Origin: Candidatus Omnitrophota bacterium
Lineage (GTDB): Bacteria > Omnitrophota > Gorgyraeia > Zapsychrales > JANLHA01
DNA length: 64,000 nucleotides
Direction of reading: 5' to 3'
Assembly (NCBI GenBank): GCA_029560465.1
Contig: JAKQKX010000073.1
Span: forward strand, 15,411-79,410
The notes beneath the pieces were generated by a model. That model saw only the letters and a program-made list of their open reading frames with translations, was not told where the DNA came from and made no database searches. A program made the position numbers and the translations under genes. Below, piece after piece: positions 8,088 through 59,817 of this stretch (positions are counted from its first letter, which is position 1; the number at the start of each line of letters is the position of its first letter).

Positions 8088-9833
8088 CTAACCTTTTTGA
8101 GCCTTTTCAATTTTAGCCCAAACATCCCGAAGCGTGACCGTGCGGTTAAAAACAGGGCACTCCTGCGAAGAATCAACAGGGTCAACACAAAAATATCCCA
8201 GCCGTTCAAACTGATACGGGGCGCCCGCCTTGGCGTGGCGCAAACTCGCTTCCATTTTGCAATTTTGAAGGATTTCCAAAGAATTCGGATTAAGGTTCGA
8301 TTTATAATCCTGCCCTTCTTCCGTTTCAGACGGGTCGGGCTTTGAAAAAAGGTGGTCATAAAGCCGGACCTCGGCATCAAAAGCATGCTCCGCCGAAACC
8401 CAATGTAACGTCGCTTTCACTTTACGGCCATCCGGAGAGTCGCCCCCTTTAGAGGCCGGATCATAGGTGCACCGTAATTCCGTCACCTCGCCCTGCTCGT
8501 TTTTGATCACCTCTTGGCACGTGATAAAATACGCGTACCGCAGGCGAACTTCCTGTCCGGGGGAAAGGCGATAGAATTTCGGCGGAGGGTTTTCCCGGAA
8601 GTCGTCTTTCTCAATATAAAGGACCCGCGAGAATAAAACCCGGCGCGTTCCGGCCTCCGGGTCTTCCGGGTTATTGACCGCCTCCAGCTCTTCGGTTTGC
8701 CCTTCCGGATAATTCGTAATCACGACTTTCAAAGGGCGCAAAACCGCGAACACGCGCAAAGCCTTTTTATTCAAATCTTCCCGAAGGCAATGCTCCAGGA
8801 AGCTGACGTCTACGGTTCCTTCCATTTTCGCCACCCCGATGCGCTCACAAAAAGACCGGATCACCTCCGGAGGATATCCACGGCGGCGCAACCCGGACAA
8901 CGTCGGCATCCGCGGATCGTTCCACCCCTGAACATACCCCCCGGTCACAAGCTCGAGCAGCTTTCGTTTGCTCATAACGGTGTAGGTCAGATTCATCCGG
9001 GCGAACTCAATCTGCTGCGGATGGCAAGGCGTCTTCAGTTCATTTAAAAACCAGTCATACAACGGCCGGTGGTTTTCAAATTCCAGGGTGCAGATCGAAT
9101 GGGTGATCCCCTCGATGGCATCGGAAAGGCTATGCGCGAAATCATACATCGGGTAGACGCACCACCGCGTTCCCGTGCGGTGATGCGAGGCTTTCCGGAT
9201 ACGGAAAATCGTCGGGTCCCGCATGTTGATATTGGAAGACGCCATGTCTATTTTCGCCCGCAACACGTGCTGCCCTTCTTCAAATTCGCCGGCCCTCATT
9301 CTCTGAAACAAATCCAAATTTTCATCAACGGAACGGTTCCGGTACGGGCTCTCCTGTCCGGCCTCCGTCAACGTTCCACGGCGAATTCGGATCTCTTCCG
9401 CGCTCTGACTGTCCACATAAGCCCTGCCGGCTTTAATCAGCTGCACGGCGTATTCGTATAACGGCTCAAAATAATCAGACGCGAAAAAAAGCTTGTCCTT
9501 CCAGTCAAAACCCAGCCAGCGCACGTCGTCCTGGATAGACTGGACGTATTCTTCCTCTTCCTTGCACGGGTTCGTGTCATCGAAGCGCAGGTGACAAACC
9601 CCGGCGTTTTCCTTCGCGATGCCAAAATTCAGGCAAATCGATTTGGCATGCCCGATATGCAGGTACCCGTTGGGTTCCGGAGGGAAACGGGTTACGACTT
9701 TCCCGCCGTGTTTCCCGGAGGCGATATCCTCGGCCACAATGGCCCGGATAAAATCCTGGCAGATTTTTGCTTTGGTTAAATCCGGATGCGACTCTTCTCC
9801 AGATTTTTTCATAAAGTTTCCATCACAAGACAT
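8088..9833 (-). CDS. glnS: Glutaminyl-tRNA synthetase
   Basis: [41 protein letters not shown] closely matches the HIGH region of E. coli GlnRS. A VMSKR (KMSKS) motif and a C-terminal anticodon-binding barrel region are also present. Confidence 0.9.
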
Positions 9834-9964
9834 TCTTGAATCCCGGGTTTTTATGTTAATTTTTAAACAAACGGATTTTAATTATATCACAGCGCGGACA
9901 CAAAGCATATTTTTCCCTGAACACCCCAAAGGGGGCCTTGCCTTCAGGCGGGGCGGTCAAAGGC

Positions 9965-10438
9965 CTACACGCGGGCCAGAAGTTTCACCGCCAAGAAAGC
10001 GACCGACGCCCCAAAGACCGGCCCCAGAAAAAGGCCCAGGACAAAACCAAACGGCAGCGTCCCGGTTAACGCGGCATTAACCGTGCCGATCATCAATCCG
10101 GCGTAAACCCCATACCTCAAGCCGGCCTCCAGGGACGGGGACTGTTCCAGTTCGCGAAAAAGTTTTTCACCCCAAAACCAGCCGCAGAACCCGCCCCACA
10201 AAACACCCCACTCTCCCCATAAAAACAACGGCAGGGGCAGAACGGGGGAAAACAGTCCGCCCGCGCTGACGCGGACCCCGAGCAAAGTAAACACACCGCT
10301 CACCGCACCCGCGCACAAGGCGCTGACCGTTAAAACAAAATATTTAGTCCGCCCCAGGGTCATGTCCGCTCCTTTTAAAACACTACGTCCATCCCAGAGA
10401 CCGGTAAAAATCCGGAACCGGCCCTGACGGGCAGGCAT
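9965..10438 (-). CDS. Small Gly/Trp-rich polytopic membrane protein of unknown function; it is the last gene of the lar-like operon
   Basis: It has three to four hydrophobic helices. The likely start is M26 at 10363, which leaves a 20-nt gap after the radical SAM stop. I found no recognisable family motif. Confidence 0.4.
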   Translation of the reverse strand: MPARQGRFRIFTGLWDGRSVLKGADMTLGRTKYFVLTVSALCAGAVSGVFTLLGVRVSAGGLFSPVLPLPLFLWGEWGVLWGGFCGWFWGEKLFRELEQSPSLEAGLRYGVYAGLMIGTVNAALTGTLPFGFVLGLFLGPVFGASVAFLAVKLLARV

Positions 10439-11600
10439 GGCAAATCTGCAGGGCGTCCGGATACGATAACGGCAGCTGCCCTTTATAATAATCCCGAATG
10501 GATTCCTTCTGGCTCAACAGAAAACAGTGCCGGCTCGGGCGCGCGAACGCGGCCCGCAACCGCCCATAGGAAACATCGAAACCTTCCGAAGGAATATGGC
10601 CAAAAGACAACGGCGTAAAATCGCACGGGCACAGATGCCCGAAGGCGTCAATGTACAAATGCTGGATCCCCGCGCCGCAGCCATACTGGCGTCCGTCTTC
10701 AATATAAGCGAACGCCGCGACTTTAGGCCCGGACGATTTCTGGTTGGCCGTAACGTGCCATTTCTTAAGAATCAGCCGCATACGGTCATCCAGCAGGACA
10801 TCGTCTCTCCCCGAAAAAAGCTCCCCGGAGGGCATGGGCTCAACAATGCGGATTTCCGGGACTCCCAGCCCCGCCACAAAAGAAACAAACCGCGCCATGA
10901 TATCCTTCGCCAGCAGCTCCCGGCGGGCCATCACCTGAACAGCGGTATAAACCCCGGCGGACAAACACGCCTCGATCGCCTGCAAAGCCGTTGAAAAAGC
11001 GTCCGGATGGCCGCGCATCTGATTGTGCGGCAGCGGCTCATAATGATCAAGGCTGACCGCCACGTAATCCAGCCCCGCCGCCACCAACGACGTTAACCGC
11101 TCCCGGGTCAAGCCCTCCCCGCTTGTAAACAAAATACTGGCCGCCCGGTCCTTGCGGATCACGCGCAGGATATCCTCCAGGTCTTCCCTGTATAAAGGTT
11201 CACCGCCGGTCAACCCGATCAAGCTCACGCCCGCCTCCTGCAGGCGCCCTAGGATCGTCTGCCATGTTAAAGTGTCAAGCTCTTGTCCCGCCCTTTTGGT
11301 TTTACTGCAATGCCAGCAATGATACCCGCAACGGTTAGTCACCGCGCAATAAGCAGAATACGGGTACGGCTTCTTTTGATAAACCGCGATCGTACTTTTA
11401 ACCATTTCCCTGTAAGCCCCGGACCCCAGGGGAGGGAAAAAAGAATTGATAATATACTCCCCGTTCAGGCAAGTTATCTTTTCATTCTTCAGGGTACGGT
11501 GAAGCGCCCACTGCACGCGAAGCGGCAGCTGGCGGAACTCCGGGGTCCGGCCGTGGAAAAACAAAATTTTATCTTTATTAAACCCGGTGAACTGTTTCAT
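10383..11600 (-). CDS. Radical SAM enzyme with a C-terminal SPASM/twitch-like Cys-rich domain
   Basis: It has a CxxxCxxC motif (NRCGYHCWHC) about 90 aa from the N-terminus, a GGEPL glycine-rich SAM-binding motif, and a C-terminal cysteine cluster (CGAG...CPCDF...HC...CHACPSG). Its start overlaps the methyltransferase stop (11600/11597). Confidence 0.8.
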   Translation of the reverse strand: MKQFTGFNKDKILFFHGRTPEFRQLPLRVQWALHRTLKNEKITCLNGEYIINSFFPPLGSGAYREMVKSTIAVYQKKPYPYSAYCAVTNRCGYHCWHCSKTKRAGQELDTLTWQTILGRLQEAGVSLIGLTGGEPLYREDLEDILRVIRKDRAASILFTSGEGLTRERLTSLVAAGLDYVAVSLDHYEPLPHNQMRGHPDAFSTALQAIEACLSAGVYTAVQVMARRELLAKDIMARFVSFVAGLGVPEIRIVEPMPSGELFSGRDDVLLDDRMRLILKKWHVTANQKSSGPKVAAFAYIEDGRQYGCGAGIQHLYIDAFGHLCPCDFTPLSFGHIPSEGFDVSYGRLRAAFARPSRHCFLLSQKESIRDYYKGQLPLSYPDALQICHACPSGPVPDFYRSLGWT

Positions 11601-12478
11601 TTTTGAGCCACTCCAGCAACGAACCGGTGCGCTGTTGTGATTTGACCGTCGCGCATATAATCTTTTTCGATAATCTCAATAAAAGCGCGGTCACACAAAT
11701 ATTTAACGCCCGGGTCCATCATCCGGTCAAAACCGGCGCTGGCCCCGGTGTGCAGGACCCAGTTTAACACGTCCACGCCGCTCTTAAAACGGAATTCTAT
11801 CCGGCCGTCCCAGATTTCCATCGTCTTCAGTCCCGCGTTATGAAACCAGCGCCGGAGACATTCTTTGTTCTCCGGCAGGCGGAACATCAAGCTCATGATC
11901 TGGCGGATATGCTGGGGATAGCGCATCATGACTTTCATACCGGTGTTCCGGATTTCCCAAAGCGTGCTTTGCTGATTTTCTATAATGCCGACCGCGCCCC
12001 CAGGAGCCAAGACCCGGCGGATTTCTTTCATGAGCGTTTGCGGGTGGGTATACCCGATCGCCCAGCCCGCGGTCACGATATTATAAGACGCCTCCCGGGC
12101 CTGACGGATGAACGTCATCATGTCTTCCGCAACGAAGGTGCCCGGCCAGGGGGATTTCTTTTTCGCCTGCTCCAGCATCTTTTCCGAAAGGTCCACGGCG
12201 GTCAAAGAGCTGCCCGGCCCCAGGCGCCCACCGACGGCCCGGGTTAAAGTCCCGGTTCCGCAAGCCAGGTCCAGGGCTTTTAACGGCCCAGGCGGCAAAG
12301 GGATCTTTTGCGCCAAATGCAGGGCATGCGGCGCCATATATCCGGAAAAAAACTCATCATACGTCGCGGCAAGCTGATTATAATCATCGGTAATATCGCA
12401 GTCCGGCACCTTTTTCCGTGCCCCCCACAGCCAGCCGATTTTCAAAAAAAAGTAAATCCGGTGAAAAAACGAGTTCAT
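11597..12478 (-). CDS. Class I SAM-dependent methyltransferase
   Basis: Motif I is LDLACGTGTLTRAVG and the post-I acidic residue sits in VDLSEKM. The ORF is 293 aa. Confidence 0.8.
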   Translation of the reverse strand: MNSFFHRIYFFLKIGWLWGARKKVPDCDITDDYNQLAATYDEFFSGYMAPHALHLAQKIPLPPGPLKALDLACGTGTLTRAVGGRLGPGSSLTAVDLSEKMLEQAKKKSPWPGTFVAEDMMTFIRQAREASYNIVTAGWAIGYTHPQTLMKEIRRVLAPGGAVGIIENQQSTLWEIRNTGMKVMMRYPQHIRQIMSLMFRLPENKECLRRWFHNAGLKTMEIWDGRIEFRFKSGVDVLNWVLHTGASAGFDRMMDPGVKYLCDRAFIEIIEKDYMRDGQITTAHRFVAGVAQK

Positions 12479-12493
12479 GCTTGTCCTTCCCTG

Positions 12494-12886
12494 TCAGCCT
12501 GAAGAGTCCGCCACCGGGCTCACGACGTAAACGTAACGTAAAAGGCCCGGGCCTGAATTCCTGATGTTATGGGGGGTGTCCGGAGGGACGTAAACCAAAC
12601 TCACCGCGTCCGCGGAAAAAATATTCTTACCGTAACAAAACACGTCGGCCCGGCCCTCCAGGATCAAGACCGCTTCTTCCCGGCCGCTGGTGACATGCTC
12701 ACCAACGGCGTCCCCGGGAGACAGCGTCACGTAACCGGACTTCATGCCGGCCGTCGACGGTTGCCCGGCCAGGAGCCGGGTAAATTTTTCAGTCCCGCCG
12801 CAGCGGACACACAAAGGCCTAAGGGTTTCCATCGCAGCTCCTGTTAAAAAGGGCGGCGACAAACCCGGCGCCAAACCCGTTATCAA
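12494..12886 (-). CDS. Small cupin-fold protein
   Basis: The cupin beta-barrel motifs are G(D)AVGEHVTSGREEAVLILEG and VYVPPDTPHNIRN. The likely start is M19 at 12832, which overlaps the larB stop by 14 nt. Confidence 0.6.
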   Translation of the reverse strand: MITGLAPGLSPPFLTGAAMETLRPLCVRCGGTEKFTRLLAGQPSTAGMKSGYVTLSPGDAVGEHVTSGREEAVLILEGRADVFCYGKNIFSADAVSLVYVPPDTPHNIRNSGPGLLRYVYVVSPVADSSG

Positions 12887-13577
12887 TATTGACCACGGTC
12901 ACGTTGGACGCGCAACTGTTGAGCATGGTTAAAAGCGGGGCGATCCCGTTAAAATTCGAGCCATATCCAACAGATGTCGGCACGCCGACCACCGGGCACG
13001 ACACCAAGCCGCCGATCACCGAAGCCAAGGCCCCGTCCATGCCCGCCACCACAATAATACAACGGCTGGATGAGATCTGATCAAAACATCCCAGCAGCCG
13101 GTGGATCCCGGCCACACCCACGTCATAAACCCGCACCACGCGGCTGCCCATCATTTCCGCCGTGACCACCGCTTCCTCCGCCACGGGGATATCCGCCGTC
13201 CCGGCGCAAACAACGCTCACCTGCCCTTTGAGGGGGACGTCTTGATCGTTAACAACGATCGTTCTGGCCTGCCGATGATATTCCGCCTTGGGGTTAATCG
13301 CCTTAATCCGGGAATAAACGGCTTCCTCGGCCCGAGTTAACAACAGGCGTTTGTTGTGGGAGGACAAGGCTTTGAAAATTTCTTCTATCTGTTCCAATGT
13401 CTTCCCCGGGCAAAGGATCACCTCCGGGAAGCCGGCCCTGAGCGCCCGGTGATGATCAACCTTGGCAAACCCAAGGTCTTCATAGGGCAGTACACGCAAC
13501 CGCTCCACGGCCGCGTCAACGGATAACTCTCCGGCCTGGACCTGTCCCAGCATTTTCTTTATCAAAGATGTTTCCAT
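12819..13577 (-). CDS. larB: LarB: pyridinium-3,5-biscarboxylic acid mononucleotide synthase (PurE-like nickel-pincer cofactor biosynthesis)
   Basis: YEDLGFAKVDHHRALRAGFPEVILCPGKT, AGTADIPVAEEAVVTAEMMG, VVAGMDGAL...VGVPTSVGYG and NSC..VTVVNIDNGFGA match characterised LarB (Lactobacillus plantarum) throughout. Confidence 0.8.
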   Translation of the reverse strand: METSLIKKMLGQVQAGELSVDAAVERLRVLPYEDLGFAKVDHHRALRAGFPEVILCPGKTLEQIEEIFKALSSHNKRLLLTRAEEAVYSRIKAINPKAEYHRQARTIVVNDQDVPLKGQVSVVCAGTADIPVAEEAVVTAEMMGSRVVRVYDVGVAGIHRLLGCFDQISSSRCIIVVAGMDGALASVIGGLVSCPVVGVPTSVGYGSNFNGIAPLLTMLNSCASNVTVVNIDNGFGAGFVAALFNRSCDGNP

Positions 13578-14368
13578 CGACGCACCTCGTTCATAGACCC
13601 GCTGCGGTATCCCTCCAGATCAATGCAGACATACGTTACCGGTCGTTTTTTTAAACGCTTAATAATCCCAACGCGATTTTTTATAAGAATCGGAAGCCGC
13701 CGGGGATCCGCTTCCACCCGGGCCACCGAACCATGCACCCGGACACGCACCGATTCGAGCCCGAGCCCGCGTAAAAAAGACTCGGCTTGAGCGGCGTATT
13801 TCAATGTTCCGGGCTCAATCGCCTCGCCAAAAGGAACCCGGGTCGCCAAACACGGGGAAGACGGACGGGCCCATCCGCGCAAATTCATGGATTTCGATAA
13901 TCGGCGGACCTCTGCCTTCGTCAAACCAGCTTCCTCCAACGGGCTGCGCACCCTTAATTCTTTAAGCGCCTTTCTGCCGGGACGGTCCTCGTTTAAATCA
14001 TCTCGATGAGACCCCTCGATCAGGTAACGGTACCCTTTTTGATCCCGCAGCCGGCACAAACAAGAAAAAATATGCTTCTTACAAAGATAACAACGGTTTT
14101 GGGGATTCTGTAAAATCTCCCGGGAAAAGGTCAGGTGTTTAAAACTGTGCTTAAGATTTAATTGCCGCGCCACATCCTTCGCCCACAGTTGCTCCTCCCT
14201 GGAAATAAAAGGCGTGACCACCGTCACGGCCAACACGCTTTTCCCCAGCACCTCCTGCGCCACCGCCGCTAAAAAAGCACTGTCCACCCCTCCGGAAAAA
14301 GCCACGACCGCTGATTCCATCCCGGCAAGGACGCGACGAAGAATTTTTAGTTTGTTTCCGGTGTTCAT
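13562..14368 (-). CDS. larE: LarE: PP-loop ATP pyrophosphatase, the sacrificial sulfur transferase of nickel-pincer cofactor biosynthesis
   Basis: It carries the PP-loop VAFSGGVDSAFL and the conserved sulfur-donating cysteine context SPCLATRVPFGE. It is 268 aa, and its stop overlaps the larB start. Confidence 0.8.
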   Translation of the reverse strand: MNTGNKLKILRRVLAGMESAVVAFSGGVDSAFLAAVAQEVLGKSVLAVTVVTPFISREEQLWAKDVARQLNLKHSFKHLTFSREILQNPQNRCYLCKKHIFSCLCRLRDQKGYRYLIEGSHRDDLNEDRPGRKALKELRVRSPLEEAGLTKAEVRRLSKSMNLRGWARPSSPCLATRVPFGEAIEPGTLKYAAQAESFLRGLGLESVRVRVHGSVARVEADPRRLPILIKNRVGIIKRLKKRPVTYVCIDLEGYRSGSMNEVRRWKHL

Positions 14369-14455
14369 ATTCGGCTTCCGTGCTTGTTGATTTTACCATT
14401 GAATCCGTACGGCGCACAATTCAATATTTTCTTGCGGCGCGCGAGACCCGGTTCC

Positions 14456-14491
14456 GGCAAAAAAGCCCTTATACGACATAAGGGCTTTTTG
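14456..14491 (-). terminator. Rho-independent terminator closing the pho operon (it can act bidirectionally)
   Basis: The hairpin AAGCCCTTATACGACATAAGGGCTT is flanked by an A-run and a T-run. On the minus strand the stem is followed by TTTTTT. Confidence 0.6.
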
Positions 14492-14526
14492 ACTTCGCAG
14501 GCCAACCGTTACGGGTCATCCCAAAA

Positions 14527-15201
14527 TTATTTATCCTGAAGCCGTTCGGGGTGGTGCTTGACAACTTTCGCTTGAATCATATAAATAACATCCTCGGCGA
14601 TGTTGGTGACATGGTCGCAAATCCGCTCCAGGAACCGGGCAATAAGCAATAACTGCACTGCGCGGGGCGCCGTTGAACCGTCTTTAACCATGTAATCCTC
14701 AATCAGCTCTTTTTGAATAAGATTCCTCAACTGGTCCGCCTCCGTGTCAGAAAGCAAAACTTTCCGGGCCAACGCGATGTCGCCTTTCACAAAGGAATCA
14801 ATGGCGGCCTTAATCATATTCTGCGCGATAAAAGTGAGCTTCGGGATATCAACAAGAGGTTTTAACAACGGCTTGTCGACTATCTCTAAAGTCCGCTGGG
14901 CGATATCAACGGCGATATCGGCGATGCGCTCAAGCTCGTTGTTGATCTTCATCCCCGTTGTAATAAAACGAAGGTCTTTAGCCATCGGCTGGTAGCGGGC
15001 GATCAAATCAATGCATTTTTCGTCAATAGCCAATTCGAGCTGGTCGACATTCGTGTCGTTATTAATGACTGTTTGGGCCAGCTCCTTGTCGCGGGTTTTT
15101 AACGCTTCAACGGATTTATAAATAGCTTCTTCCGCAAAGGCCCCCATCCGTAAAATATCGTTATTTAATTCCTTTAATTCATGATCAAAATGTCGCTCCA
15201 T
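14527..15201 (-). CDS. phoU: Phosphate signalling complex protein PhoU
   Basis: The PhoU helical repeats read DKELAQTVINNDTNVDQLELAIDE and ELERIADIAVDIAQ. The ORF is 224 aa. Confidence 0.9.
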   Translation of the reverse strand: MERHFDHELKELNNDILRMGAFAEEAIYKSVEALKTRDKELAQTVINNDTNVDQLELAIDEKCIDLIARYQPMAKDLRFITTGMKINNELERIADIAVDIAQRTLEIVDKPLLKPLVDIPKLTFIAQNMIKAAIDSFVKGDIALARKVLLSDTEADQLRNLIQKELIEDYMVKDGSTAPRAVQLLLIARFLERICDHVTNIAEDVIYMIQAKVVKHHPERLQDK

Positions 15202-15216
15202 TCACTCCTCCTGTTT

Positions 15217-15972
15217 TTAACCATACCGCCCGGTTATATATTCTTCCGTGCGCCGGTCTTTCGGCGCGGTAAAAATCTCGGTGGTTTTGCCGAATTCTAT
15301 TAATTCCCCCAACAGCATAAAGCCGGTGTCATCTGAAACCCGTGCCGCCTGCTGCATGTTATGCGTCACGATAATAATCGAATAATCGCTCTTGAGTTCC
15401 CGCATCAGTTCTTCAATGCGGGCGGTGGCCTGCGGGTCCAGGGTGGAGCAGGGCTCGTCCATAAGCAACACCTCCGGCTTGACCGCAATCAGCCTGGCGA
15501 CACACAACCGCTGCTTTTGCTCAAGAGACAACGACAACGCCGATGAATTCAGCTTGTCTTTGAGTTCGTCCCACAACAAAACACTTTTTAAGCTTTGCTC
15601 CACGACGGCATCGAGGGCGCTCCTCGACATGGCCCCGCTGTGGATCCTTTCCCCGAAAACAATGTTTTCATAAACCGAAAGTGGAAAAGGATTGGGACGC
15701 TGAAAAACCATGCCGACCTTTTTGCGCAACGCCACCAGGTCCATGCGGCCGGTCAGGATGTTCGCCCCGTCAATGACCACCTCCCCCGTCATGCGCACCC
15801 CATCGACAAAGTCATTCATCCGATTAAAAACCCTCAAAAGCGTCGATTTGCCGCATCCCGAGGGGCCGATGATGGCGGTGATGCGGTGTTTCTCGAAGGA
15901 CGCGTTTACGTCTTTAAGCGCGTGAAACGGCCCGTACCATAAATTCAAATTTTTCGTTACGATTTCCGACAT
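15217..15972 (-). CDS. pstB: Phosphate ABC transporter ATP-binding protein
   Basis: The PstB N-terminus LNLWYGPFHALKDV, Walker A GPSGCGKST, the ABC signature LSLEQKQRL and Walker B LLMDEP are all present. Confidence 0.9.
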   Translation of the reverse strand: MSEIVTKNLNLWYGPFHALKDVNASFEKHRITAIIGPSGCGKSTLLRVFNRMNDFVDGVRMTGEVVIDGANILTGRMDLVALRKKVGMVFQRPNPFPLSVYENIVFGERIHSGAMSRSALDAVVEQSLKSVLLWDELKDKLNSSALSLSLEQKQRLCVARLIAVKPEVLLMDEPCSTLDPQATARIEELMRELKSDYSIIIVTHNMQQAARVSDDTGFMLLGELIEFGKTTEIFTAPKDRRTEEYITGRYG

Positions 15973-16718
15973 TAACCGAATTTCCCCCGGATATAATCAT
16001 CTGTGCGCTGGTCGCCAGGGGCCGTAAACATTTTCTCCGTCGCGTCCAGCTCGATCAATTCCCCGCCTAAAAAGAAAGCGGTCCGGTCGCCCACCCGGGC
16101 GGCCTGCTTAACGTTATTGGTCACAAGGACGATCGTGTAACGGCTTTTAAGCTTGAGCATCGCGTCCTCAACTTTGGCGGTTGAGATGGGGTCAAGGCCG
16201 GAACAGGGTTCATCAAATAAAATCACTTCCGGCTCGACCGCCAGGGTCCGGGCGATACACAACCGCTGCTGCTGCCCCCCCGACAACTTAAACGCCGATT
16301 CCCCAAGGCGGTCTTTGACTTCCTCCCAAAGGTAAGCCTCCTGAAGGGCCTTCTGCACTCTTTCATCAAGGCTCTTTTTCTTCTTTTCCCCGTGCATCCG
16401 CACCCCGTAAGCCACATTATCAAAAACCGAAAACGGCAACGGCAACGGCAAGGCAAACACCATCCCAACCCTTTTCCTTAACAATTCAACGTCGACCCGA
16501 AAAAGGCCGTCCTCTCCGATCCTTATCGCCCCTTCCATCCGGTATTTGACATGAAGCTCGTTGAGCCTATTCAACATCCGCAAAAATGTCGTTTTCCCGC
16601 TGTTCGAAGGCCCGATGATGCTTAAAATCTCGTTGGCGTGAATAGCCAAACTGACCTTCTTTAAAGCCCGAATGTGCCCGAACTGGACACTCAAATCTTT
16701 GATATCAAATGTCACCAT
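15972..16718 (-). CDS. pstB: Second tandem phosphate ABC transporter ATP-binding protein (PstB paralog)
   Basis: It has Walker A GPSNSGKTT, the signature LSGGQQQRL and Walker B ILFDEP. A tandem pstBA/pstBB arrangement is known in Bacillus. Confidence 0.85.
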   Translation of the reverse strand: MVTFDIKDLSVQFGHIRALKKVSLAIHANEILSIIGPSNSGKTTFLRMLNRLNELHVKYRMEGAIRIGEDGLFRVDVELLRKRVGMVFALPLPLPFSVFDNVAYGVRMHGEKKKKSLDERVQKALQEAYLWEEVKDRLGESAFKLSGGQQQRLCIARTLAVEPEVILFDEPCSGLDPISTAKVEDAMLKLKSRYTIVLVTNNVKQAARVGDRTAFFLGGELIELDATEKMFTAPGDQRTDDYIRGKFG

Positions 16719-31827: not shown

Positions 31828-33210
31828 TCAATCATTTTTGATAAAGGTGCGCCTCAAGGAATCTTTTAACCGGCCTCTGCGGTGTTCCCGGACAAGAACG
31901 CTGGCGATCAAACGCGGCCCGGCCAAGAGGAGCGAAAGCCCCTCTTTCAAGGTAAAAAACTTGACGATAAAAAGATTCTTCCAGAGAATCCTCGCATATC
32001 GGCCTGGGGTATAAAAAGCATACTTGATCTTTTTGCCGATCTTTTTCAATGCCGCCGAACTATACTTATCAGAATAAAGTTCCCCCCGCTCCGTCACATG
32101 ATAACCCGGCGTTTTTTCAGCAAGTGTTCTTAGTGAAGAAAATTTCTCGATCCGCAGTTTATTGCAGGAAATCGCATCCACCCCGATTTCCCTGGCGAAC
32201 GGAGCGATGAACAACATTTCTTCTTCTGTTTCTCCGATATTTCCATAAATAAAATAGCCGTTGGAAAGGATCGGATATGTCCTAAGGACGGAAAAAGCCT
32301 TTCTGATCGTGGCCTGATCAAACCCTTTGTCCAATTGCTTAAGAATCCTGTCGTGCGGAGATTCGATCCCGATGAGAAGCGCTTTAAATCCCGCGTTAAC
32401 CATTTTCTCCAATAACTGCGGGTGTTTCGCGATATCGAGTCTGGACTGGGCAATAAAACGCTTCTTGATTTTCCGTTTGATAAGCAAATCACAAATCTCC
32501 TCCGTCCGCTTTGGATTGGTAAAAAGATTGTCGTCACTCAACATAATCACCTTGGCGGTTAATCCCGCGATCTCATCAACGACCGAGGCGACGTCGCGCT
32601 CAGCATAAGTTCTTTTTTGTCCCAAAGGGTTCAAACTGAACGTGCAAAATTTGCAATTAAAGGGGCACCCTCGGGCGCTTAAAACAGTATCAAAGGAGAG
32701 CCCCGCAATTGGGATGCCGTTAACCAGAAGGCGATAATCATTGCGCCTGAGCGCGCGGTCCGGGGGAACCAACTCATTGACATCCGCAAGGGGCCGGATG
32801 GAATTATGCCTGATCCGATCATCTTCCCGGTAAGATATTCCAAGAACATCCTTTAAGGCGGTCCCTTTTAAAATTTCCTGGGTAGTTCTTTCGCCCTCGC
32901 CCCGGACGATGATATCGATGCGCGGGCAAGCCGTGAAGAACTCTTCGACTTTCTCGGTGGCGGTATACCCTCCAACAATCAGGGGGATATTCTCCGGCAG
33001 ATGGTTCAGCAATTGAAAAATTTCATCGAGTTGGCGGTCCCAGCCAACGGTCACGAAAACGATATCAACCTGGTTTTCAATAAAACGCATCAAGGGCCCA
33101 GGCTCGGACAACTCTTTTTCATACCTCAAGTCAAGAAGCGTAATCTTTTCAACAAGTCCTTTAGCGCTGGTGGCGACATATTCGAGACCCGTCGGCGGGA
33201 AGAGCATCAT
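31828..33210 (-). CDS. B12-binding-domain radical SAM protein (class B rSAM)
   Basis: It has an N-terminal cobalamin-binding Rossmann-like region and a radical SAM CxxxCxxC motif (ARGCPFNCKFC). The ORF is 460 aa. Confidence 0.8.
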   Translation of the reverse strand: MMLFPPTGLEYVATSAKGLVEKITLLDLRYEKELSEPGPLMRFIENQVDIVFVTVGWDRQLDEIFQLLNHLPENIPLIVGGYTATEKVEEFFTACPRIDIIVRGEGERTTQEILKGTALKDVLGISYREDDRIRHNSIRPLADVNELVPPDRALRRNDYRLLVNGIPIAGLSFDTVLSARGCPFNCKFCTFSLNPLGQKRTYAERDVASVVDEIAGLTAKVIMLSDDNLFTNPKRTEEICDLLIKRKIKKRFIAQSRLDIAKHPQLLEKMVNAGFKALLIGIESPHDRILKQLDKGFDQATIRKAFSVLRTYPILSNGYFIYGNIGETEEEMLFIAPFAREIGVDAISCNKLRIEKFSSLRTLAEKTPGYHVTERGELYSDKYSSAALKKIGKKIKYAFYTPGRYARILWKNLFIVKFFTLKEGLSLLLAGPRLIASVLVREHRRGRLKDSLRRTFIKND

Positions 33211-33804: not shown

Positions 33805-33879
33805 TGGCTGCCCCGTCTGGACTCGAACCAGAAATGCTTGATCCAGAGTCAAGTGTGTTACCAATTACACCACAGGGCA
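33805..33879 (-). tRNA. tRNA-Gln (anticodon CUG), with the CCA end encoded
   Basis: My manual fold gives a 7-bp acceptor stem (TGCCCTG/CGGGGCA), a D-arm, an anticodon stem CTTGA/TCAAG with loop CTCTGGA, a T-arm GGTTCGAGTCC and a terminal GCCA. Confidence 0.85.
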
Positions 33880-39018: not shown

Positions 39019-40395
39019 TTAGTTTTTTTCGTCTTTTTTTACTTTTTCAAGACGGGCCAGCCAGTCCTTAATCTTCCTTTCAACACCCATTTCAGTCGGG
39101 AAATAATACTGTTTCTTTAAATAAACGTACTCTTGATCAACAAAATGATTAGCATAATTATGAGCATACTGATAGCCTTCTCCCCGGCCTAATTTTTGTG
39201 CCCCGGGATAGGAGGAATCCTTCAAATGTAACGGAACTTCTTGTGTCCTATGGGTTTTAATATCTTTTAAAGCGTTTTCCAGCCCCATATAGCTGGCATT
39301 GGATTTAGGCGCGCACGCGACATAAACAGCGGCTTGCGCCAAGGGGATTCTGGCTTCCGGCATGCCAATAAATTCCGAAACCTGCATAGCTGCGCTAGCC
39401 ACTATAAGCGCATGCGGATCCGCGTTTCCAACATCTTCCGCCGCGCAAATACAGATTCTCCGGGCTATAAACCGCGGGTCCTCCCCGGCAACGATCATTT
39501 TTGCCAGCCAGTACAAGGTCGCGTCCGGGTCAGTCCCCCGCATGGATTTGATAAACGCAGAGGCGGTGTCATAATGCGCATCCCCATCCCGGTCATACAC
39601 AAATTTCTTCTGAACAGACTCCCGGGCGACATCAACGGGAAAAAGAACCTCCCCAGAAGGGGACGAAGGAGTCGTTAAGACTCCGATTTCCAGGGCGTTA
39701 AGCGCCTTACGCGCGTCCCCGTCACTCATCTTCGCCAAAAACAGCAGCGCATCCTCATCGGCCTTCACGCGCAGCGCTCCCAAGCCTTTTTCTTTATCAG
39801 TCAGCGCCCGTTTTAAAATTAACACAATCTCCTCATTTCTCAATGCTTTAAGTTCAAAAACAAGGGAGCGGGAAATCAACGGGCCCACCAGGGAAAAATA
39901 GGGATTAAAAACCGTGGCCCCGATTAAAACAATGAGCCCTTCTTCCAGGTCCGGCAAGAGCACTTCCTGCTGGCTTTTATTAAACCGGTGAATTTCATCA
40001 ATGAACAAAATGGTCTTCCTGCCGCTGCTGTGCCAGCGATGCTGACCTGCGGCAAGAATTTTTCTCAACTCCTCGACATTGGACGTAACGGCATTAATCC
40101 GTACAAATGGACACGTGGTGGTGTGGCTAATACAGGCGGCGAGGGTTGTCTTCCCGACCCCCGGGGGGCCGTAGAGGATCAGGGAGCTTAAGCGATCGGC
40201 TTCAATAACGCGGGTCAGCAATTTCCCCGGGCCAAGGATATGTTGTTGGCCCACAATGTCCTTGAGCCGGGACGGCCGCATCCGATAACTTAACGGGGAC
40301 GCTTGTGGAGGAAAGTCATTCGGTCGCTCAACAAAAAGATCGCCGGCGTTTTCGTTCAGGGCCTTTTCTCTCATGATCAAACATGTTCGTTTCAA
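39019..40395 (-). CDS. rarA: Replication-associated recombination protein A (AAA+ ATPase)
   Basis: The Walker A is GPPGVGKTTLA and the Walker B is ILFIDEIHRFNKSQQ. The MgsA C-terminal domain is present. Confidence 0.9.
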   Translation of the reverse strand: MKRTCLIMREKALNENAGDLFVERPNDFPPQASPLSYRMRPSRLKDIVGQQHILGPGKLLTRVIEADRLSSLILYGPPGVGKTTLAACISHTTTCPFVRINAVTSNVEELRKILAAGQHRWHSSGRKTILFIDEIHRFNKSQQEVLLPDLEEGLIVLIGATVFNPYFSLVGPLISRSLVFELKALRNEEIVLILKRALTDKEKGLGALRVKADEDALLFLAKMSDGDARKALNALEIGVLTTPSSPSGEVLFPVDVARESVQKKFVYDRDGDAHYDTASAFIKSMRGTDPDATLYWLAKMIVAGEDPRFIARRICICAAEDVGNADPHALIVASAAMQVSEFIGMPEARIPLAQAAVYVACAPKSNASYMGLENALKDIKTHRTQEVPLHLKDSSYPGAQKLGRGEGYQYAHNYANHFVDQEYVYLKKQYYFPTEMGVERKIKDWLARLEKVKKDEKN

Positions 40396-40608
40396 TAAAA
40401 AACCCCACCATGCCGTCGGGCTTTAGAAACGGTGAACCCATTCCCTAAGTGGGAACCTCTCCGGAAAATCCAAGGACTTCCCAGAAGTTTAGCGTCCCGT
40501 CCTAAATGTGTTGGTTCAATTTATAGAGCCACTAACGTACACAGCAGGGCAAAAGTTATTATACCATCATTAGGTCTCTTGTAAAACAAAAGCTAAGAAG
40601 GCAGGGTA

Positions 40609-42639
40609 TTAACGCATGACGACACCCAATTGGTCGATCAAGGCTTGCGCGATATCCCCGTGGGCGATGGAAATATCCTCTTCGGTTAAAGTTTTAAGAG
40701 AGGATCTGTAGACGATGGAAAAAATAAACCCTTTATACCCCGGCTGAATTTTTTCACCGCGGTATTCTTCCAGGAAAGCAACGTCTTCCAAAAGCGCTCC
40801 TCCCTGTTTTAGAATAACCTCTTTCACTTTCTGAAAAGAAACATCCTCTTTGACGGCGAGGCTGATGTCTCGCGTTACGCCCGGGAATTCCGAAAACTTC
40901 TTAAAAGAGGGCTTCTTGCTTGCCAGCTTATATAGGGCTTCAAAATCACATTGAGCATAAAACACCGCCCGATGCTTAATGTCCCATTGCTGCAACAGGC
41001 CCCTGTCCACCTCTCCGACGCGGCCCAGAGCCGTTTTCCCGGCCCGGATACTGGCGCCCGTCCCCTTTTTAAAAAACGGGTCTTCGCATGCCTCATAGAC
41101 AACGGCCGTCAGGCCAAGGCGCGCAAACATTTGATCCAACGCCCCCTTAAGATCATAAAAATCCCACGCCCGATTGTGCAGGGCCCTCCAGTCCTTGTCC
41201 CTCGTTCCGCTGCCCATAACAGCCAGCATCTTGTACTCGGCTTGCCCTAAATAAATTTTTCCGATTTCGAAAATTTTATTGTCTTTCTGTCCGCGATGGA
41301 TATTGCTCCGGACAATCCCTAATAAACTCGGAAAGAGAGACGGGCGCATAACCTCCTGATCCAAAGACAAAGGATTTTTGACCCGGACAACCGGGAGCCC
41401 GGAAAGCCCGCTCTTATCCAAAGAACCCTGGCTGAGCAAAGAATAAGAAACTGTTTCGTTATATCCCTGTCCGATAAAAATATCCCGCAGCTTATGCGCA
41501 AAAGGATATTCCGGCTGTGGCGGGACATTCTGCGCCCGGACCAACGGGAGCGTGAGGGGCAGATTGTCATACCCCACGACCCGAGCGATTTCTTCAATCA
41601 CATCAACGGGGTCTTTAATGTCCGCACGCACGGACGGGGCAACGACCTTTAAAACCCCCGGCCCGCCGGCAGAAACCCGAAAATTCAACTTTTTTAAAAT
41701 AGTGCGGCATTTCGCAACGGTCAATTCGGAGCCTAACAACTCATTGATTTCCATCAAGCTAACAGTCACGCTTTTCCCCTGGGCCCGCACCCGGCCAGGA
41801 TTAACGTCCCTCCGGGCGACAACGCCCCCGCCGGCTTCAGTCAAGATCAAAGAAACGGCCCGGGCGGCCCCGGCTTCGACGGTGGCAAAATCCACGCCGC
41901 GCTCAAAACGATACGAGGAGTCGCTCTTAAGGCCGAGCAGCCTCGACGCCCTCCGGATTAAAACCGGATCAAAATAAGCGCTCTCCAGAAGAATCTTCCG
42001 GGTCTGGTTGGTCACTTCCGTGGCCAGCCCCCCCATAATTCCGGCAATGGCCACCGGGCGCTGTGCGTCAGCGATCACCAAAACCGACGGGTCCAACGCG
42101 CGCTCCACTCCATCCAAGGTCACAATCTTTTCTCCAGCTTTCGCCCGGCGCACAACAATCTTTCCCCCAATCAATTTGTCGTAATCAAAAGCGTGCAACG
42201 GCTGCCCGGTTTCCAGGAGGCAAAAATTAGTAATATCCACGACGTTATTAATTAACCGGCCACCCAAAGCAGACAAACGGGTTCCTATCCAGTCCGGGGA
42301 GGCTTTCACCTGCACAGGCTCAAGGACCGTTCCAATATACCGGCCGCAGTCTTTCTGATCGGCGATTTCAATATCGCATCTCGTCTTAGGATAAAGCAAT
42401 TTTTTAACTTTAGGAAGCTTTAAAGGCTTGTCTAAAACCGCCGAGAGTTCCCGGGCAATCCCCTGAAAATTCAAACAATCCGGGCGGTTGGGCGTGACCT
42501 CCATCTCCAAAATAACATCATCCCCGGCGTCTTCAATTTTTTCCACTTCCAGGCCGGCCATCGTTAATTTGTGCGCCAATTTTTCCGCCGGGAGCTGAAA
42601 GGACACATAATCTTTAAGCCATTTGATGCTGATCTTCAT
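40609..42639 (-). CDS. pheT: Phenylalanyl-tRNA synthetase beta subunit (short form, 676 aa)
   Basis: The N-terminus MKISIKWLKDYV, the B3/B4 and B5 domains, and a C-terminal ferredoxin-fold anticodon-binding domain are present. The ORF is about 110 aa shorter than typical bacterial PheT. Confidence 0.9.
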   Translation of the reverse strand: MKISIKWLKDYVSFQLPAEKLAHKLTMAGLEVEKIEDAGDDVILEMEVTPNRPDCLNFQGIARELSAVLDKPLKLPKVKKLLYPKTRCDIEIADQKDCGRYIGTVLEPVQVKASPDWIGTRLSALGGRLINNVVDITNFCLLETGQPLHAFDYDKLIGGKIVVRRAKAGEKIVTLDGVERALDPSVLVIADAQRPVAIAGIMGGLATEVTNQTRKILLESAYFDPVLIRRASRLLGLKSDSSYRFERGVDFATVEAGAARAVSLILTEAGGGVVARRDVNPGRVRAQGKSVTVSLMEINELLGSELTVAKCRTILKKLNFRVSAGGPGVLKVVAPSVRADIKDPVDVIEEIARVVGYDNLPLTLPLVRAQNVPPQPEYPFAHKLRDIFIGQGYNETVSYSLLSQGSLDKSGLSGLPVVRVKNPLSLDQEVMRPSLFPSLLGIVRSNIHRGQKDNKIFEIGKIYLGQAEYKMLAVMGSGTRDKDWRALHNRAWDFYDLKGALDQMFARLGLTAVVYEACEDPFFKKGTGASIRAGKTALGRVGEVDRGLLQQWDIKHRAVFYAQCDFEALYKLASKKPSFKKFSEFPGVTRDISLAVKEDVSFQKVKEVILKQGGALLEDVAFLEEYRGEKIQPGYKGFIFSIVYRSSLKTLTEEDISIAHGDIAQALIDQLGVVMR

Positions 42640-57231: not shown

Positions 57232-58572
57232 ATGAACCTATTGCTCCTGTGGGAAAAAATTCAGCCCCAAATTCGCGAACAGTTAGGGGCAACAACTTAC
57301 GACACGTGGTTTTCTTCCATTCAAATACAATCTCCCAATTCAGACAATCTTATTATTAACACTCCTGATGAATTTTTCCAAAACTGGTTTATAGAACACT
57401 ACCTTCCAATTATTAAACACCATCTTGGTTCTCTCATAAACCATCAAATTCATTACGAAGTCGCCATAAACCCATTAGAGGTTCCAAACAAGCCGGCAAC
57501 ACAACAAATCATCCACAACGAAAACCTCGCTCCTAAAAAAGAAGACCAGCTACCCATTCATCTCAACCCACGATTTTCTTTTGATAATTTCGTTGTCGGG
57601 CCATCGAACAGGTTTGCTTATTCGGCCTGCATGGCTGTCGCAGAATCCCCGGCGAAGGCGTATAACCCTCTATTTATATATGGTCATGTTGGGCTTGGGA
57701 AAACCCACCTCATGCAGGCGATCACACATCAAATTCAAAAAAACTCTCCAAACAGCACCTGTTGTTATCTTTCTTCTGAACGATTCACAAATGAATTAAT
57801 CGACGCTATCCGGCATCGATCTACCGCTAATTTCAGAAAAAAATACCGGCATATCGATGTTTTACTTATAGATGATATCCACTTCCTGGCAGGCAAAGAG
57901 TCCACGCAGGAAGAATTCTTCCATACATTTAACACGCTTCATAATAATCACAAACAAATCATCATATCTTCTGATCGTCCTCCAAAAGAAATATCCAATT
58001 TAGAAGAACGCTTAAGTTCCCGTTTTGCTTGGGGCTTAATCACTGATATTCAACCGCCGGATTTTGAAACGCGGGTCGCAATATTAAGAAAAAAAGTTGA
58101 AAAAGAGCCCGTTAGGGTTCCTGAAGAAGTAATTACATTTATCGCTGAACAAATTAAAACTAATATTCGAGAGCTAGAGGGTGCGCTCATCAGAGTTTTA
58201 GCTTATTCTTTGCTAGAAGAACATCCCATCACTTTGGATATGACAAAAATTGTCCTCCGAGATATGGTTAAAGAAACGGTTAAAATTATCAGCATCGAAA
58301 TGATTCAAAAAACCGTTGCTGAGTTTTTTAATATCTCTTGTTCTGATTTAAAAGCCAAAAAAAGAACTCAAAATATTTTAAAACCAAGACAAGTTGCAAT
58401 GTATTTATCAAGACGTTTAACGAATCTTTCGCTACCGGAGATAGGAAATTCTTTCGGTGGGAAAGATCACACAACGGTATTGCATTCATTAAGAAAAATA
58501 GAGGAGAATTTAAAGGAAGATTTTCAATTAAAAAATGAAATAGAAAAATTACTAACAACATTAAAACAATAA
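57232..58572 (+). CDS. dnaA: Chromosomal replication initiator protein DnaA
   Basis: The AAA+ Walker A is GHVGLGKTHLMQAI and the Walker B is LLIDDIHFLAGKE. Domain IV carries the DNA-binding HTH. Confidence 0.95.
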   Translation: MNLLLLWEKIQPQIREQLGATTYDTWFSSIQIQSPNSDNLIINTPDEFFQNWFIEHYLPIIKHHLGSLINHQIHYEVAINPLEVPNKPATQQIIHNENLAPKKEDQLPIHLNPRFSFDNFVVGPSNRFAYSACMAVAESPAKAYNPLFIYGHVGLGKTHLMQAITHQIQKNSPNSTCCYLSSERFTNELIDAIRHRSTANFRKKYRHIDVLLIDDIHFLAGKESTQEEFFHTFNTLHNNHKQIIISSDRPPKEISNLEERLSSRFAWGLITDIQPPDFETRVAILRKKVEKEPVRVPEEVITFIAEQIKTNIRELEGALIRVLAYSLLEEHPITLDMTKIVLRDMVKETVKIISIEMIQKTVAEFFNISCSDLKAKKRTQNILKPRQVAMYLSRRLTNLSLPEIGNSFGGKDHTTVLHSLRKIEENLKEDFQLKNEIEKLLTTLKQ

Positions 58573-58651
58573 TCCTCCAAATACACACGGCTTTTCAACA
58601 AAAATTATTTATTTAACTTGTTATATTTCAACGTGTTTTAACCTTATTCAA

Positions 58652-58660
58652 TTTTTCACA
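58652..58660 (+). promoter_or_regulatory. DnaA box (TTTTTCACA) in the dnaA–dnaN spacer
   Basis: The spacer is AT-rich, and the 9-mer matches TTWTNCACA. Confidence 0.45.
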
Positions 58661-58728
58661 AGCTCTACTATTATGACTACGGTCTATTATAAATAATTAA
58701 TCGAATTAGTAGCAAAAGTGGGGATTTT

Positions 58729-59817
58729 ATGAAAATCAAAATTAGTAAAGAAAAATTATTAGAAAGCATCCAAATCGTACAAAATATCGTTTCATCCAAA
58801 ACAACACTTCCTATCCTTTCTAATATATTATTAGAAACAAAAGGAAAAGAATTAAAAGTAAACACAACCGATTTGGATATTGGTATTTCCTGTGGAATAC
58901 CTGTAGATATTATTGAAGAAGGGTCAATAACAATTCCAGCAAAAAGATTTAGCGATATTGTCAAAGAATTACCCTCTGGGGATATTTCTATTCATGTGAA
59001 AAAAAATAATCAGGTTGACATTGATGGAGAAAAATGCCGTTTTAAATTATTGGGGTTGCCTCGGGAAGAATTTCCAAAATTTCCGGAATTTAAAGACAGG
59101 GAAGTGATTAAAATAGAGCAGGCTGTTTTAAAGGAAATGATCCGCTTGACATCTTTCGCTGTTTCTCATGAAGAAACCCGATATATTTTAAATGGTATTT
59201 TAATAGAAATTAATGATAGTAACATAAAAATGGTTGCCACGGATGGAAAAAGGTTGGCAAAGGCTGACGATAAAATTTTAACACCAACTAAAAAAGAAAT
59301 TTCGGTCATTGTTCCTATAAAAGCAATACAAGAAATCTTTCGGAATTTACATGATGAAGGGGAAGTTTCCTTTGTTGTTGGAAATAATCAAGTTTTGTTT
59401 GATATTGACGGAATTTTAATAGCAACCCGGATTATAGAAGGGGATTTCCCAAATTATAATCAAGTTATTCCAAGCCCAATGACAACAAAAATAAAAATTC
59501 ATACACAACAATTTTTAAGCGCTATTCGTCGGGCTAATTTGCTTTCTACTCCGGATTTTCAGGCGATTAAGTTCGAAGTTTTTTCTGACAAGATCGTTGT
59601 TTCTAAAATTACTCCCGATGTCGGGGAATCCCGGGAAGAGGTCCCTATTCAGTATAGCGGAAAAGAGTTGGTAGTCGGGTTTAATCCGCAGTTTTTTATA
59701 GATGTTTTAAAAAATATTAACAGTAATAATATTGATTTAGAATTGTTGGGTCCGGATAAAGCCGCGGTGATTCGGCAGGAAAACTATTTGTATTTGGCTT
59801 TACCTATGCGCATATGA
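58729..59817 (+). CDS. dnaN: DNA polymerase III beta sliding clamp
   Basis: The 362-aa ORF reads MKIKISKEKLLESIQIVQNIVSSKTTLPILSNILLE and has a three-domain clamp architecture. Confidence 0.9.
   Translation: MKIKISKEKLLESIQIVQNIVSSKTTLPILSNILLETKGKELKVNTTDLDIGISCGIPVDIIEEGSITIPAKRFSDIVKELPSGDISIHVKKNNQVDIDGEKCRFKLLGLPREEFPKFPEFKDREVIKIEQAVLKEMIRLTSFAVSHEETRYILNGILIEINDSNIKMVATDGKRLAKADDKILTPTKKEISVIVPIKAIQEIFRNLHDEGEVSFVVGNNQVLFDIDGILIATRIIEGDFPNYNQVIPSPMTTKIKIHTQQFLSAIRRANLLSTPDFQAIKFEVFSDKIVVSKITPDVGESREEVPIQYSGKELVVGFNPQFFIDVLKNINSNNIDLELLGPDKAAVIRQENYLYLALPMRI

Follow-up and report, generated by a model that had tools for sequence, protein, structure and literature searches.

In nickel-pincer cofactor biosynthesis, LarB makes P2CMN from nicotinic acid adenine dinucleotide (NaAD) by carboxylation and hydrolysis, and LarE turns P2CMN into the dithiocarboxylate P2TMN. 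To our knowledge, the field has a single nickel insertase, LarC. It is a fast-growing field, in which nickel-pincer adenine dinucleotide (NPAD) and two user folds other than LarA have come out of lar-adjacent genes in 2025-2026. In Lactobacillus plantarum, the genes form the operon larA-larB-larC1C2-larE. LarC works as a large hexamer that carries out CTP-dependent CMPylation and forms the C-Ni bond (PMC13510736). About 15% of genomes carry larBCE without larA, and further users of the cofactor are expected (PMC11796402). Recent finds through Lar adjacency are NphT, a non-LarA pincer enzyme with an aldo-keto reductase (AKR) fold (PMC13524815), and an ornithine cyclodeaminase dependent on NPAD, a known variant pincer cofactor (PMC13524815 and its ref. 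22). The 64,000-nt stretch of Candidatus Omnitrophota DNA analysed here (contig JAKQKX010000073.1, positions 15,411 to 79,410; hereafter the window) carries six co-oriented genes on its minus strand, namely larE, larB, a cupin gene, and genes for a class I S-adenosylmethionine (SAM) methyltransferase (MT), a radical SAM protein (rSAM) and a small polytopic membrane protein. We find that larE-larB-cupin is a genuine Lar unit in Omnitrophota, a new variant of the nickel-pincer system with an uncharacterised third component. The other three genes very probably form a second, independent module, which lies beside the first and is probably co-transcribed with it only in this Candidatus Omnitrophota sublineage.

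The two pathway enzymes named by an earlier, sequence-only reading of the window both score above their curated equivalog cut-offs. LarE (13562-14368, minus strand), an ATP-dependent sulfur insertase of the PP-loop family, reaches 276.7 bits against TIGR00268 (cut-off 150) and has the SGGVDS PP-loop. LarB (12819-13577, minus strand), the pyridinium carboxylase/hydrolase of the NaAD to P2CMN step, reaches 288.5 bits against NF033503 (cut-off 175), with an AIRC domain of PurE-like fold, and its gene overlaps larE by 16 nt. Both are orthologous to the L. plantarum proteins (54% identity for LarB, 32% for LarE), and the steps from NaAD through P2CMN to P2TMN are expected to be alike. The LarE proteins differ in their cysteines: L. 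plantarum LarE has a single sacrificial Cys176, whereas window LarE has a CXXC-C triad (NRCYLCKK ... SPCLATR) that is common to Clostridium butyricum LarE and absent from the L. plantarum protein. This triad is the signature of the [4Fe-4S]-dependent catalytic LarE characterised in Thermotoga maritima (C92, C95, C172; PMC9283937). The T. maritima and window proteins have in common the SGGXDS PP-loop and the equivalents of all three cysteines; their operon contexts differ, and the [4Fe-4S] cluster of the window protein is predicted from the motif. Because of the triad, window LarE is, by motif, assigned to the predicted [4Fe-4S]-dependent catalytic class and not to the sacrificial single-Cys type. 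The SPCLATR cysteine, put forward earlier as a sulfur donor, is indeed present, but it is part of the triad and not a sacrificial single Cys.

The remainder of the canonical gene set is missing from the surroundings, as the sequence-only reading had noted for the window. With LarA, LarC1/C2 and LarC from the annotated L. plantarum and C. butyricum plasmids as references, tblastn gave no meaningful match to LarA, LarC1 or LarC2 (L. plantarum) or LarC (C. butyricum) in the 64-kb window at E<=1. Pfam scans of 20 further large open reading frames (ORFs) of the window found no LarC or LarA and only housekeeping proteins (PFK, RND efflux, PhoR/PhoB, tRNA synthetases, DnaA/DnaN and others). At E<=1e-3, neither protein was matched by tblastn in 274 kb around 13 loci with the order larE-larB-cupin (hereafter trios; +-10 kb each). 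The LarB, LarE and LarC set is incomplete at the level of the locus, DUF111 LarC being found neither in the window nor around the trios, and the lactate racemase-type user LarA (Lar_N/LarA_C) was not found there either. Compared with the L. plantarum operon, the window and the other trios lack larC and larA within +-10 kb and have a cupin gene after larB.

This cupin gene (12494-12832, minus strand) encodes a 112-aa monocupin, starts with the ATG at 12832 within a mechanical ORF that extends to 12886, and overlaps larB by 14 nt. The cupin gene directly follows larE-larB in 13 of 13 inspected loci. These represent nine distinct neighbourhoods, their cupins are as little as 47% identical, and larB and the cupin gene overlap or lie at most 7 nt apart throughout. 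A hidden Markov model of the cupin family found no further member, whether in 1.4 Mb of rSAM loci or among 80 metagenomic loci with LarB relatives at 50-62% identity, which served as a comparison sample. In that sample, LarC adjoins LarB in 26 loci and LarE does so in 13, and several have the order larE-larB-larC. Such operons of uncultured bacteria (for example L107, L134 and L167) have the same first two genes in the same order as the window. Their third gene encodes LarC (~400 aa, DUF111) and they contain no member of the cupin family, whereas the third gene of the trios encodes the 110-aa cupin, which thus takes the position held by larC. In a neighbor-joining tree of LarB, operons of the LarC type fall inside the smallest clade containing all trio LarBs. 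The LarE and LarB of L167, a larE-larB-larC operon, are 54 and 61% identical to those of the trio L087, and the L087 proteins are 42-47 and 53-56% identical to those of the trios in the window group. Since L087 thus stands closer to L167 than to the window group, the third slot of the operon is the variable one. Cupin and LarC are mutually exclusive per locus in this sample: the 13 trios have no LarC, and the 26 LarC loci have no cupin. A weak cupin match after LarB in L092 belongs to an unrelated XRE-HTH/cupin regulator and was set aside.

Other genes recur around these loci. In the trio L087 (5231-10797), the cupin gene is followed by genes for a 163-aa protein, an alpha/beta-hydrolase, glycerol kinase and GlpA/B/C-like anaerobic glycerol-3-phosphate dehydrogenase; a tie of the 163-aa gene and the hydrolase to the accessory genes of MT-rSAM was rejected for want of homology. 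A membrane protein of ~316 aa, UbiA-prenyltransferase-like by eye only, recurs by LarB without adjacent LarC in nine loci (L113, L123, L137, L138, L145, L146, L150, L157, L169). A protein of ~227 aa, UbiX-like by eye only, lies next to LarB without adjacent LarC in L095, L150, L162 and L163.

The link between LarB and the cupin is closest in a natural fusion. An exhaustive profile search retrieved P0244, a 363-aa protein whose residues 40-246 match LarB (274 bits, cut-off 175) and whose residues 259-362 match the cupin family of the trios (129 bits). The 90% cluster of P0244 comprises five sequences that differ by point changes and come from ~9 contigs of NCBI and Logan assemblies, which argues for a real gene and against a frameshift artefact. 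The fusion (L175:3945-5036 and L176:892-1983) stands between LarE (295 bits) and NikR (185 bits, cut-off 105; L176:2057-2473), in the order LarE - LarB::cupin - NikR. The presence of this nickel-responsive regulator beside the fusion suggests that nickel remains in the picture. In the same lineage, a gene for a 197-aa class I methyltransferase (L175:2565-3158) overlaps the start of larE. It was considered as a relative of the window MT and rejected; it has no significant similarity to it and is 27% identical to short MT paralogs of Clostridia and candidate-phyla-radiation (CPR) bacteria, so that this MT-Lar adjacency is coincidental or independent. The functional tie between LarE/LarB and the cupin that had been read from the window is borne out by the 13 loci, their nine contexts and the fusion. 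Under one alternative, the cupin would be an unrelated passenger in a larEB operon, for example a sugar isomerase or a small regulator-like cupin. Its generic fold, with no specific functional match, fits such a passenger. This is nevertheless very improbable, as gene order and overlap are conserved across the nine contexts, the family is found in no other context, and the cupin is naturally fused to LarB.

The cupin exceeds the Pfam Cupin_2 cut-off (34.7 bits against 27.2). Its family has 543 profile matches, the top 120 at 46-80% identity, and all members with a named source are from Omnitrophota. Residues H46, T48, E52, E53, H88 and N92 are invariant in 50 family sequences, and the motif G-x5-H46-x-T48-x3-E52 ... 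P83-x4-H88-x3-N92 is invariant. H46, E52 and H88 stand at the canonical cupin metal-ligand positions, with Thr48 in place of the usual second His; judged by this motif, the cupin is predicted to keep a 2-His-1-Glu metal site, His46/Glu52/His88. In addition, the family has a specific invariant N-terminal segment, R-L-L-x-G-x-P-x-T-x-G-M-K-S-G-Y. An N-terminal CxxC was considered as a metal site and rejected, being conserved in close relatives only. The AlphaFold2 (AF2) model is a minimal cupin barrel (mean predicted local distance difference test score, pLDDT, 88), and a fold search with it returned the generic metal-binding monocupins TM1287 and TM1459 as the nearest structures (E ~1e-5). We found no paper in a literature search that ties a cupin to LarB, LarC and LarE.

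The genetic coupling of the cupin to LarB and LarE is observed, and from it we infer that the cupin is their dedicated partner. It may deliver or insert the metal, carry out a different late step of the biosynthesis, or bind the cofactor. It would act with or straight after LarB/LarE, and most likely would handle the metal step or bind the finished or near-finished pincer nucleotide. Two more specific proposals can be compared. In the first, the cupin replaces the absent LarC and performs or enables metallation of P2TMN to the nickel-pincer nucleotide (NPN) or to a non-cyclometallated variant. Its place in the third slot, its mutual exclusion with LarC and its canonical metal ligands are in keeping with this, and its fusion to LarB, with NikR adjoining, points to a part in making the cofactor and not in using it. 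However, it is difficult to see how a cupin of 110 aa could carry out the chemistry of LarC (PMC13510736). Moreover, lar genes are often dispersed, larC being absent beside larB in most of the 80 LarB loci, so that LarC may simply lie elsewhere in the genome. We regard replacement of LarC as rather unlikely. The second proposal starts from that point: the pathway would be canonical, with LarC encoded elsewhere, and the cupin would be a new binder or user of the nickel-pincer nucleotide other than LarA, either an enzyme or a carrier. The genomes with larBCE and no larA (PMC11796402), the two non-LarA users found through Lar adjacency (PMC13524815) and the lack of LarA in the 274 kb around the trios speak for it, and the invariant His residues could serve as Ni ligands. 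Against it, one would not normally expect a consumer of the cofactor to be fused to the enzyme of the first biosynthetic step, and the cupin is very small for an enzyme with a nucleotide cofactor. Lys31, the candidate tether, is at least 90% conserved in the family but is Arg in the LarB::cupin fusion, and this speaks against a lysine tether like that of LarA or NphT. The second proposal is a real possibility, which we hold tentatively. Like NphT and the ornithine cyclodeaminase (PMC13524815), the cupin comes from the same discovery logic and ties another fold to the pincer genes. It differs from them in having a cupin fold, in being much smaller, in its link to LarB/LarE without LarC and in its fusion to LarB in one lineage. 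The NphT pipeline was anchored on LarC, so that larE-larB-cupin without LarC would escape it.

Several points weigh against giving the cupin so firm a place in the Lar system. The trio loci may share one ancestral event, so that the 13 loci are not 13 independent observations, and the fusion comes from one lineage only. In addition, the match of the modelled fold is generic, and a nickel or pincer-nucleotide role lacks support at the level of residues.

The three genes downstream of the cupin gene are those of the MT (11597-12478, minus strand; 293 aa), the rSAM (10383-11600, minus strand; 405 aa, overlapping the MT gene by 4 nt at ATGA) and the membrane protein (9965-10363, minus strand; 132 aa, mechanical ORF to 10438). 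Gene junctions from larE to the membrane-protein gene are, in order, -16, -14, +15, -4 and +19 nt. The Shine-Dalgarno sequence of the MT gene, GGAAGGA, lies inside the 15-nt gap behind the cupin gene, in which a promoter or terminator would not fit. A scan of 9700-14700 for terminators found five weak hairpins, fewer than the expectation of 8.2 set by shuffled sequences, and all of them lie away from the gene junctions. Upstream, the six genes are bounded by the intrinsic terminator of the pst-phoU operon (14460-14491, minus strand), a GC-rich hairpin followed by a T-run that reads AAAAAGCCCTTAT-GTCG-ATAAGGGCTTTTTT at ~14460-14491. An Rfam search near larE-larB-cupin found no riboswitch or regulatory RNA, and gave tRNAs, 6S RNA and an unrelated thiamine pyrophosphate (TPP) element only. 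The tight gene array and its start behind the pho-operon terminator had been described correctly. As the 15-nt cupin-MT junction is without a terminator, the six genes are probably a single transcript in the window genome.

The tight operon had suggested that the rSAM, the MT and the membrane protein may share a pathway with LarE and LarB. Our comparison of relatives does not sustain this. All close homologs of the rSAM and of the cupin are labelled Candidatus Omnitrophota. LarE, LarB and the cupin stand beside MT-rSAM only in the window and in L001, L004 and L005, relatives whose rSAM is 77-82% identical. Nine of the 13 trios lack MT-rSAM, and the Omnitrophota loci L006-L010 (rSAM ~50% identity) keep MT, rSAM and membrane protein without Lar genes. 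The six-gene order thus does recur, in L004, in L005 and, with a spacer, in L001, but in none of the other loci. L084, a 3.36-Mb Omnitrophota contig that is syntenic with the window by tblastx, separates the modules cleanly. It is collinear with the window from MgsA to GluRS (40089-34025), across LarE-LarB-cupin (14368-12512) and from GlnRS onward (9755-2165), has no counterpart of window 9965-12478, and carries glnS directly after the cupin gene. In L001, ~0.5 kb of AT-rich non-coding DNA separates the cupin gene from the MT gene. The gap in L084 and the spacer in L001 indicate that even close relatives do not always transcribe the modules as one unit. In the 80 metagenomic LarB loci, neither MT nor rSAM stands beside LarB; the search gave one weak, distant match of the rSAM superfamily (E 6e-07), at the contig end of L159. 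Lack of co-occurrence with larBE in relatives, which the sequence-only reading had named as evidence against itself, is therefore what is found for the rSAM and the MT, but not for the cupin.

The two-module reading is accordingly the one we hold to be very probable, with larE-larB-cupin as the first module and MT-rSAM-membrane protein as the second. The latter would be a mobile orphan cassette, carried without Lar genes by many anaerobic phyla of bacteria and archaea, that entered the window sublineage between the cupin gene and glnS. The competing explanation is that all six genes build a modified pincer nucleotide, for example a methylated or differently metallated one, with the rSAM and MT tailoring the product of LarB/LarE. 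The tight junctions without an internal terminator and the order shared by L004, L005 and, with the spacer, L001 are as it would predict, and NPAD shows that diversity of the cofactor is plausible (PMC13524815). It is set against the nine trios without MT-rSAM and the ~80 MT-rSAM loci elsewhere without Lar genes, as well as against the clean presence or absence of the cassette in L084 and the spacer of 0.5 kb in L001. In addition, MT and rSAM are 36-50% identical in archaea and bacteria in which they have no Lar context, which argues for a common substrate unrelated to Lar. We consider a single six-gene pathway highly improbable. What does count against two fully separate modules is the 15-nt cupin-MT junction without a terminator and the retention of the arrangement in L004, L005 and L001; some lineage-specific functional co-option may thus have taken place.

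Like SkfB, PqqE, BlsE and MoaA, the window rSAM combines a CX3CX2C core with a C-terminal auxiliary-cluster domain; unlike them, it has a distinct conserved N-terminal domain (~80 aa) and an obligate MT partner. It scores 66.8 bits against Radical_SAM (PF04055), and its CX3CX2C motif (C91-x3-C95-x2-C98) is invariant. Four Cys (C308, C324, C326, C359) are conserved in the C-terminal domain, which does not have the full seven-Cys SPASM motif, CX9-15GX4C...CX2CX5CX3C...C. The Pfam SPASM model matches most homologs of the rSAM and does not match the window protein at E<0.01. The SPASM/twitch domain described earlier therefore stands as a twitch or partial SPASM domain with four Cys, but not as a full seven-Cys SPASM. 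All 47 NCBIfam matches of the rSAM are far below cut-off, the best being PqqE (85.8 bits against 381); with every curated cut-off missed, it is not an equivalog of PqqE, NirJ, MoaA, AhbD or SkfB. A fold search with its AF2 model (pLDDT 93) placed SkfB, BlsE and PqqE about equally distant, at a TM-score of ~0.55. We considered the rSAM as a maturase of ribosomally synthesized and post-translationally modified peptides (RiPPs) and rejected it. Its N-terminal 75 residues, predicted as beta-alpha3-beta2-alpha, do not have the topology of a RiPP precursor-recognition element (RRE), no PqqD/RRE Pfam model matches, and no precursor-like conserved gene is present among its clustered neighbours. A second, unrelated radical SAM gene of the window (31828-33210, minus strand), next to an outer-membrane efflux gene cluster, has an N-terminal B12-binding domain (class B rSAM).

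The MT is a Rossmann-fold SAM methyltransferase, as are the class I enzymes of the BioC/UbiE type. It matches Methyltransf_25/11 and UbiE-like domains and is best described as a generic UbiE/BioC-like methyltransferase, reaching neither the BioC (61.5 bits, cut-off 185) nor the UbiE (56.7 bits, cut-off 216) family. For the membrane protein, there was no Pfam, NCBIfam or PADLOC match. An anti-phage defence role for MT and rSAM was rejected, PADLOC giving generic MT and viperin-core similarity only.

The rSAM-family profile is found in at least 295 species of the reference-genome collection. Its bacterial hosts are Omnitrophota, Kiritimatiellia, Lentisphaerota, Verrucomicrobiota, Planctomycetota, Elusimicrobiota, Clostridia, Thermotogaceae, Spirochaetes and CPR bacteria, and its archaeal hosts are Asgard archaea and Bathyarchaeia. 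We studied the context of the best 80 reference-genome loci and three others. The MT gene lies directly upstream of the rSAM gene (gap <=50 nt) in 60 of 81 unique loci and within 172 nt in four more, and the two also exist as a fusion protein, P0050. Homologs of the membrane protein (cluster 6) adjoin MT-rSAM in seven loci, all of Omnitrophota, making it an accessory of the pair in this phylum only. Outside Omnitrophota, the same position is held by small multi-transmembrane proteins of several unrelated families. Clustering of the neighbours revealed no other universal partner. An alpha/beta-hydrolase gene lies directly downstream of the rSAM gene in eight loci of Clostridia, CPR bacteria and Spirochaetes, and an rSAM-alpha/beta-hydrolase fusion, P0054, exists as well. 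In some loci of the Planctomycetota-Verrucomicrobiota-Chlamydiota (PVC) superphylum, MT-rSAM is accompanied by an unrelated lipase/thioesterase-like hydrolase together with LplT-Aas and PlsY. Methyl-ester logic like that of BioC/BioH was considered for MT and alpha/beta-hydrolase and kept as an analogy only; the hydrolases are generic (BioH 50-57 bits against 207). By these comparisons, MT-rSAM appears as an orphan cross-domain pair without a characterised relative. It would couple a radical step to methyl transfer, and in some phyla an esterase- or lipase-like hydrolase would take part as well. From the neighbours there is a weak indication that its substrate is a small molecule associated with the membrane, or a lipid; the lipid-related neighbours, however, occur in few PVC loci only, which tells against a lipid.

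Several other features of the window were recorded. The pst operon contains two tandem genes (15217-16718, minus strand) for PstB-like ABC ATPases (251 and 248 aa), which share a start/stop junction at 15972. It is part of a block of ~19 kb (about 14.5-33.8 kb) with pst-phoU, phoR/phoB, a nitroreductase, a patatin, PFK, RND efflux and the B12-type rSAM. The boundary of this block is a tRNA gene directly after GluRS (33808-33879, minus strand; also L084:6280-6351). The syntenic L084 lacks the block, which may therefore have been inserted at the tRNA gene. A 6S RNA gene (40398-40553, minus strand; Rfam RF00013, 55 bits) lies between the genes of PheT (40609-42639) and MgsA (39019-40395), immediately downstream of the former and upstream of the latter. 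The dnaA and dnaN genes (57232-59817, plus strand) coincide with a sign change of GC skew at ~58 kb and with a drop of G+C to 33-36% at 54-60 kb; the chromosomal replication origin apparently lies within the window.

Separating MT-rSAM from the Lar genes prevents a misleading annotation as a "methylated pincer cofactor" pathway and flags a widespread cross-domain orphan pair for study of its own. For the Lar system, the cupin is a concrete candidate for an additional pathway component or for a fold newly recognised to bind the cofactor; mining pipelines anchored on LarC would miss it. Should the cupin replace LarC, those Omnitrophota that have the trio could make the nickel-pincer cofactor, or a variant without cyclometallation, independently of LarC.

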